Assembly: GCF_003334255.1 (NCBI RefSeq)
Contig: NZ_QOWU01000231.1
Source: Escherichia coli
GTDB taxonomy: Bacteria; Pseudomonadota; Gammaproteobacteria; Enterobacterales; Enterobacteriaceae
Strand: one strand, 5' to 3'
DNA length: 497 nt
Every line of letters begins with the position of its first letter. Positions within the stretch are counted from its first letter, which is position 1. Position numbers and translations under genes: made by a program. Of the stretch, positions 1 through 55 are shown piece by piece. Below the pieces are notes generated by a model, which was not told where the DNA came from, made no database searches, and saw only the letters and a program-made list of their open reading frames with translations.

Positions 1-41
1 TCGGTATAACCGAGTAACTGGCGGGTCGTAAACAATCCCAT
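1..41 (-). CDS. Major capsid protein, lambda E-like; 5' end only, gene continues beyond window position 1
   Basis: ATG at 41..39 (minus) opens a reading frame that runs to the window edge and translates MGLFTTRQLLGYT. This matches the recalled N-terminus of lambda major capsid protein gpE (MSMYTTAQLL...) at M, TT and QLL. An AAAGGAA Shine-Dalgarno-like motif lies about 7-9 nt upstream. The gene sits 57 bp downstream of the decoration gene, as recalled for lambda D then E. Only 13 codons are visible. Confidence 0.65.
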   Translation of the reverse strand, partial: MGLFTTRQLLGYT

Positions 42-48
42 AAATCAG

Positions 49-55
49 TTCCTTT
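49..55 (-). promoter_or_regulatory. Ribosome-binding site (AAAGGAA) for the major capsid gene
   Basis: Minus-strand AAAGGAA at 55..49 is followed by CTGATTT and then ATG at 41..39, an acceptable SD-to-start spacing. Confidence 0.5.

Follow-up and report, generated by a model that had tools for sequence, protein, structure and literature searches.

Translation start of the major capsid gene in a phage 21-type prophage of Escherichia coli and the out-of-frame ATG upstream of it

Introduction

The closest described counterparts of the locus studied here are found in phage 21 and in lambda. In phage 21 (M81255, OL657228) the protease-scaffold gene 5/6 is followed by shp and gene 7, a gene order that is shared with the present DNA, and the start of the capsid gene has already been assigned in the head operon record M81255. 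In lambda, the homologues of shp and gene 7 are D and E, respectively, and the structure of the capsid protein gpE has been solved experimentally.

Here we analyzed a stretch of 497 nt (the window) from E. coli (assembly GCF_003334255.1, contig NZ_QOWU01000231.1), in which the start region of the major capsid gene is read on the minus strand. A sequence-only reading had pointed out two ATG triplets near the predicted start and had warned that an annotation pipeline could choose the wrong one. This is not borne out: the two triplets lie in different frames, the capsid frame carries a stop codon in between, and all inspected records are correct. The result is thus negative, i.e. there is no annotation hazard at this capsid start.

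Results

The window spans the junction of the decoration and major capsid genes

Prophages in E. coli strains JE86-ST05 and JE86-ST02 and in two further strains match the minus strand of the window with 100% identity, and 1,871 E. coli records do so with at least 90%. Identity to phage 21 and to related lambdoid phages is 95.8–96%. Positions in the identical prophage used as reference (L001) correspond to 2998 minus the window coordinate. The annotated gene order of this prophage, i.e. portal, S49 peptidase/scaffold, head decoration, major capsid, FI and head-tail joining, places the capsid gene in a head gene cluster of the lambda type; the equivalents in phage 21 are 4, 5/6, shp, 7, ORF1 and 8. 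Immediately upstream of the capsid gene, at 99..446 on the minus strand, lies the gene for the head decoration protein (115 aa; homologue of phage 21 shp and lambda D), which is annotated as such and matches phrog_49 (E = 2.7e-30).

Two further observations concern this part of the window. Antisense to the decoration gene, and spanning it completely, is an ORF of 123 codons that starts with GTG (96..467, plus strand); it is unannotated in the records seen and most likely represents a shadow ORF cast by the coding strand. The 42 bases that close the protease/scaffold gene region (456..497, minus strand) are 100% identical to Aeromonas phage AP1 (MT713136, 254 kb), where the match is isolated, short and located in an unannotated stretch.

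ATG 41..39 opens a 342-codon frame that is collinear with lambda gpE

From position 60 to 30 the minus strand reads ctgaATGAAAGGAACTGATTTATGGGATTG, and the stretch around the start is ...TGCCGTAA cacgttaTCAGGCCACCATGGTGGCCTGActgatttctgaATGAAAGGAACTGATTTATGGGATTGTTTACGACCCGCCAGTTACTCGGTTATACCGA. Direct reading confirms the two minus-strand ATG triplets at 58..56 and 41..39, which are 17 nt apart and in different frames. The sequence AAAGGAA (55..49) is separated from ATG 41..39 by 7 nt (CTGATTT, 48..42). The upstream ATG had been placed inside this putative ribosome-binding site, but rather adjoins its 5' edge. In the capsid frame a TGA stop codon is present at 45..47 on the minus strand, two codons upstream of the ATG (...AAC TGA TTT ATG...), and therefore the long ORF cannot begin before ATG 41..39.

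Within the window, the frame from ATG 41..39 translates as MGLFTTRQLLGYT.. up to the edge, with GLFTTRQLLGYTEQK as predicted N-terminal peptide, and the capsid gene leaves the window at position 1. Extension below position 1, which had been proposed beforehand as a check, revealed an ORF of 342 codons (2957..3985 in the reference prophage), while the frame from ATG 58..56 encounters a stop after 37 aa. This is the opposite of the outcome that had been named as speaking against ATG 41..39, namely an early stop in its own frame and a long continuation from ATG 58..56.

The encoded protein was then compared with known capsid proteins. A phmmer search against PDB aligned its residues 1–341 with residues 1–340 of lambda gpE (7vi9_A; E = 3.2e-132), and thus both proteins are collinear including their N-termini, MGLFTTRQLL being placed opposite MSMYTTAQLL. 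With more remote capsid proteins (3bqw, YSD1) the alignment begins at residues 2–6. The Pfam family PF03864 (Phage_cap_E) is matched over its full length (query 5–341, model 1–329 of 329; E = 2.8e-65), and the PHROG 'major head protein' profiles phrog_2353, phrog_6020 and phrog_29 are matched from profile position 1, with E-values down to 1.6e-186. NCBIfam returned no match for any of the three proteins tested, even at E ≤ 1, which is uninformative since Pfam and PHROGs cover the family. By homology, the product is a major capsid protein of the lambda gpE type with 342 aa and a predicted HK97-fold. Hence, the earlier assignment of ATG 41..39 as start of a capsid gene encoding a gpE-like N-terminus is upheld by the ORF length and by the one-to-one alignment from Met1. 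For neither phage 21 gp7 nor the product of this prophage did the searchable literature yield protein-level N-terminal data (sequencing or mass spectrometry), and it offered nothing directly usable on the N-terminus of lambda gpE or from lambda ribosome profiling.

The product name varies among records. In a relative (L006 1300..2328, WP_000522648.1) and in L012 (YP_009909571.1) the 342-aa gpE-type major capsid protein is designated 'minor capsid protein E', which is a product-name inconsistency in some RefSeq records rather than an error in coordinates.

A Shine-Dalgarno sequence and consistent annotation mark ATG 41..39

Shine-Dalgarno (SD) pairing was assessed as duplex formation with the 3' end of 16S rRNA, ACCUCCUUA. 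Upstream of ATG 41..39, the best duplex comprises 5 bp (AAGGA) with -5.6 kcal/mol, leaving a gap of 8 nt after the AAGGA core and of 7 nt after AAAGGAA. This arrangement agrees with a canonical SD start, i.e. complementarity of at least 4 nt located about 5–10 nt upstream of ATG, GTG or TTG, and it substantiates the previous description of AAAGGAA (49..55, minus strand) as a well-spaced ribosome-binding site, which is also conserved. Upstream of ATG 58..56, pairing is practically absent (-1.5 kcal/mol). Both the SD and ATG 41..39 are unpaired in the centroid fold of a 110-nt junction RNA; a weak helix of 4 bp between GGAA of the SD and an upstream UUCU appears in the minimum-free-energy fold only and is missing from the centroid.

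Moreover, the CDS of the capsid gene starts at the equivalent of ATG 41 in 13 of 13 annotated records inspected. These comprise seven RefSeq genomes annotated by PGAP (one of them with IS200C in the spacer), the phage 21 operon record from 1992, the phage 21 genome from 2021 and four phage records in other annotation styles, RAST-style included. The ribosome-binding site itself is annotated on the GGA core in two of the 13, both from phage 21 (M81255, OL657228).

A hairpin is predicted between the decoration and capsid genes

In the spacer separating the two genes, a stable RNA hairpin with 9 bp and a 4-nt loop is predicted at 70..91 on the minus strand (-16.4 kcal/mol, z = -3.9), which includes a perfect 20-bp DNA palindrome (73..92). 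The region between hairpin and ATG 58..56 is predicted to be unstructured. A pattern scan classified the hairpin as terminator-like, but its T tail is weak. No Rfam match was obtained for the whole window at E ≤ 1, and thus the hairpin does not belong to a curated RNA family. Hairpins of unrelated sequence followed by T-runs occupy the same position in lambda (-12.2 kcal/mol) and in a divergent relative (L009; -11.6 kcal/mol), which suggests, as judged from predicted folds, that a hairpin between decoration and capsid genes is a positionally conserved element.

Sequence variation among relatives affects loop and stem. The loop (window 80..83) is CATG in the window versus CGCG in phage 21 (L002, L003) and most relatives, and this two-base change leaves the 20-bp palindrome perfect (CCATGG versus CCGCGG). 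A C-to-T exchange in the 5' arm allows a G-U pair (L007), and a G-to-T exchange in the 3' arm breaks a pair (L008). During late transcription, Q-modified RNA polymerase reads through terminators. For this reason, a role of the hairpin in stability or processing of the mRNA would be as plausible as termination.

In four E. coli strains, IS200C (tnpA, same strand) is inserted at approximately window position 64/63, i.e. between hairpin and SD (L010, NZ_CP043406, 1600..2367; H28–H30). The insertion leaves SD and ATG untouched and the capsid ORF complete. IS200C may exert polarity on capsid expression and accordingly may mark a defective prophage.

Discussion

The start of the capsid gene at this locus is unambiguous and correctly annotated in every record checked; it is an ordinary, already known feature. 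We consider it nearly certain that the segment 39..55 on the minus strand, with the start codon at 39..41, is the translation initiation region for the major capsid protein of a lambdoid prophage of the phage 21 type, and that ATG 58..56 is incidental. This view is based on ORF lengths, homology from residue 1, SD pairing and spacing, consistent annotation and the lack of conservation of the upstream ATG. Mechanistically, the 30S subunit would pair with the AAGGA core of AAAGGAA (55..49), thereby placing ATG 41..39 in the P site, which would correspond to standard SD-directed initiation at a very highly expressed late gene. We infer that ribosomes start at ATG 41..39 in vivo and that the 37-codon frame gives rise to no useful amount of product.

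As they differ in frame, the two ATG triplets do not compete as starts of the same gene, and a gene finder would err here only by preferring a 37-codon over a 342-codon ORF. The real candidates for a start are only the in-frame start codons located downstream of the nearest in-frame stop. Within the window, ATG 41..39 has a single competitor of this kind, namely the third codon of the capsid gene, TTG at 33..35 on the minus strand. Bacteria can use TTG as a start codon, and initiation there would yield a protein of 340 aa. However, the SD core is located roughly 13–14 nt upstream of this TTG, beyond the usual optimum, while ATG 41..39 is both the stronger start codon and at optimal distance. 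In addition, lambda gpE and the PHROG profiles align from residue 1, and none of the 13 annotations uses the TTG. A start at TTG 35..33 is therefore extremely improbable, and we dismissed it on the grounds of SD spacing and residue-1 homology.

It could further be argued that ATG 58..56 (56..58, minus strand) is the real start of a 37-aa ORF that overlaps the start of the capsid gene and modulates capsid initiation, for instance by occluding the SD. The triplet is shared by all close phage 21-type relatives (L001–L003, L005–L008 and L010), and it is preceded by the unstructured region that extends from the hairpin. Its presence in these relatives is explained by their overall nucleotide identity of roughly 95–100%, and it is uninformative there, since phage 21-type elements hardly vary in the spacer. 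The divergent relative L009 retains the SD AAAGGAA as well as the start ATGGGATTGTTTAC, but carries ATT in place of the upstream ATG; its gap between SD and ATG is one base longer, and the length of its spacer also shifts the frame. Lambda possesses no upstream out-of-frame ATG either. Loss of the upstream ATG in both cases, with SD and start retained, indicates that it behaves as an incidental triplet. By our estimate, out-of-frame ATGs within about 20 nt upstream of a start occur at a chance level of roughly 0.3 per gene (about 20 positions x 1/64), and the arrangement seen here does not exceed random expectation. Moreover, ATG 58..56 is devoid of an SD, its 37-aa product has no match in PHROGs or NCBIfam, and the site composed of SD and ATG 41 should outcompete it at a strongly expressed capsid gene. 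A genuine regulatory start at ATG 58..56 thus has next to no likelihood, although low-level initiation at this triplet may occur. As a gene, the 37-codon ORF was rejected, since it lacks an SD, homologues and conservation. Somewhat less remote, yet still improbable, is a broader scenario in which the junction as a whole is regulatory: the hairpin would act as a partial terminator or as an element for RNA stability or processing that sets the ratio of decoration to capsid protein, and ATG 58..56 together with the 37-codon frame would tune initiation. The upstream ATG is accordingly regarded as incidental, and initiation of the capsid gene is assigned to ATG 41..39.

Comparison with phage 21 and lambda places the start region in a familiar context. 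In phage 21 the spacer has the same length of 57 nt and is identical to the window from the 3' arm of the hairpin through codon 11. Gene 7 of phage 21 has the same annotated ribosome-binding site (GGA core), the same ATG and the same CDS length of 1029 nt; on the other hand, nucleotide divergence across the 497-base window is ~4%, and the hairpin loop differs (CGCG versus CATG). Lambda gpE (PDB 7vi9) is collinear with the present protein from Met1 to the C-terminus (341 versus 342 aa), with MSMYTTAQLL instead of MGLFTTRQLL at the N-terminus. The D-E junction of lambda likewise contains a hairpin followed by an SD of the GGA type and the ATG, in a spacer of 55 nt versus 57 nt here. In contrast to this shared layout, the lambda spacer is unrelated in sequence: the hairpin carries a T7 tail and GGGA serves as SD, with SD and start codon arranged as GGGA-T7-ATG.
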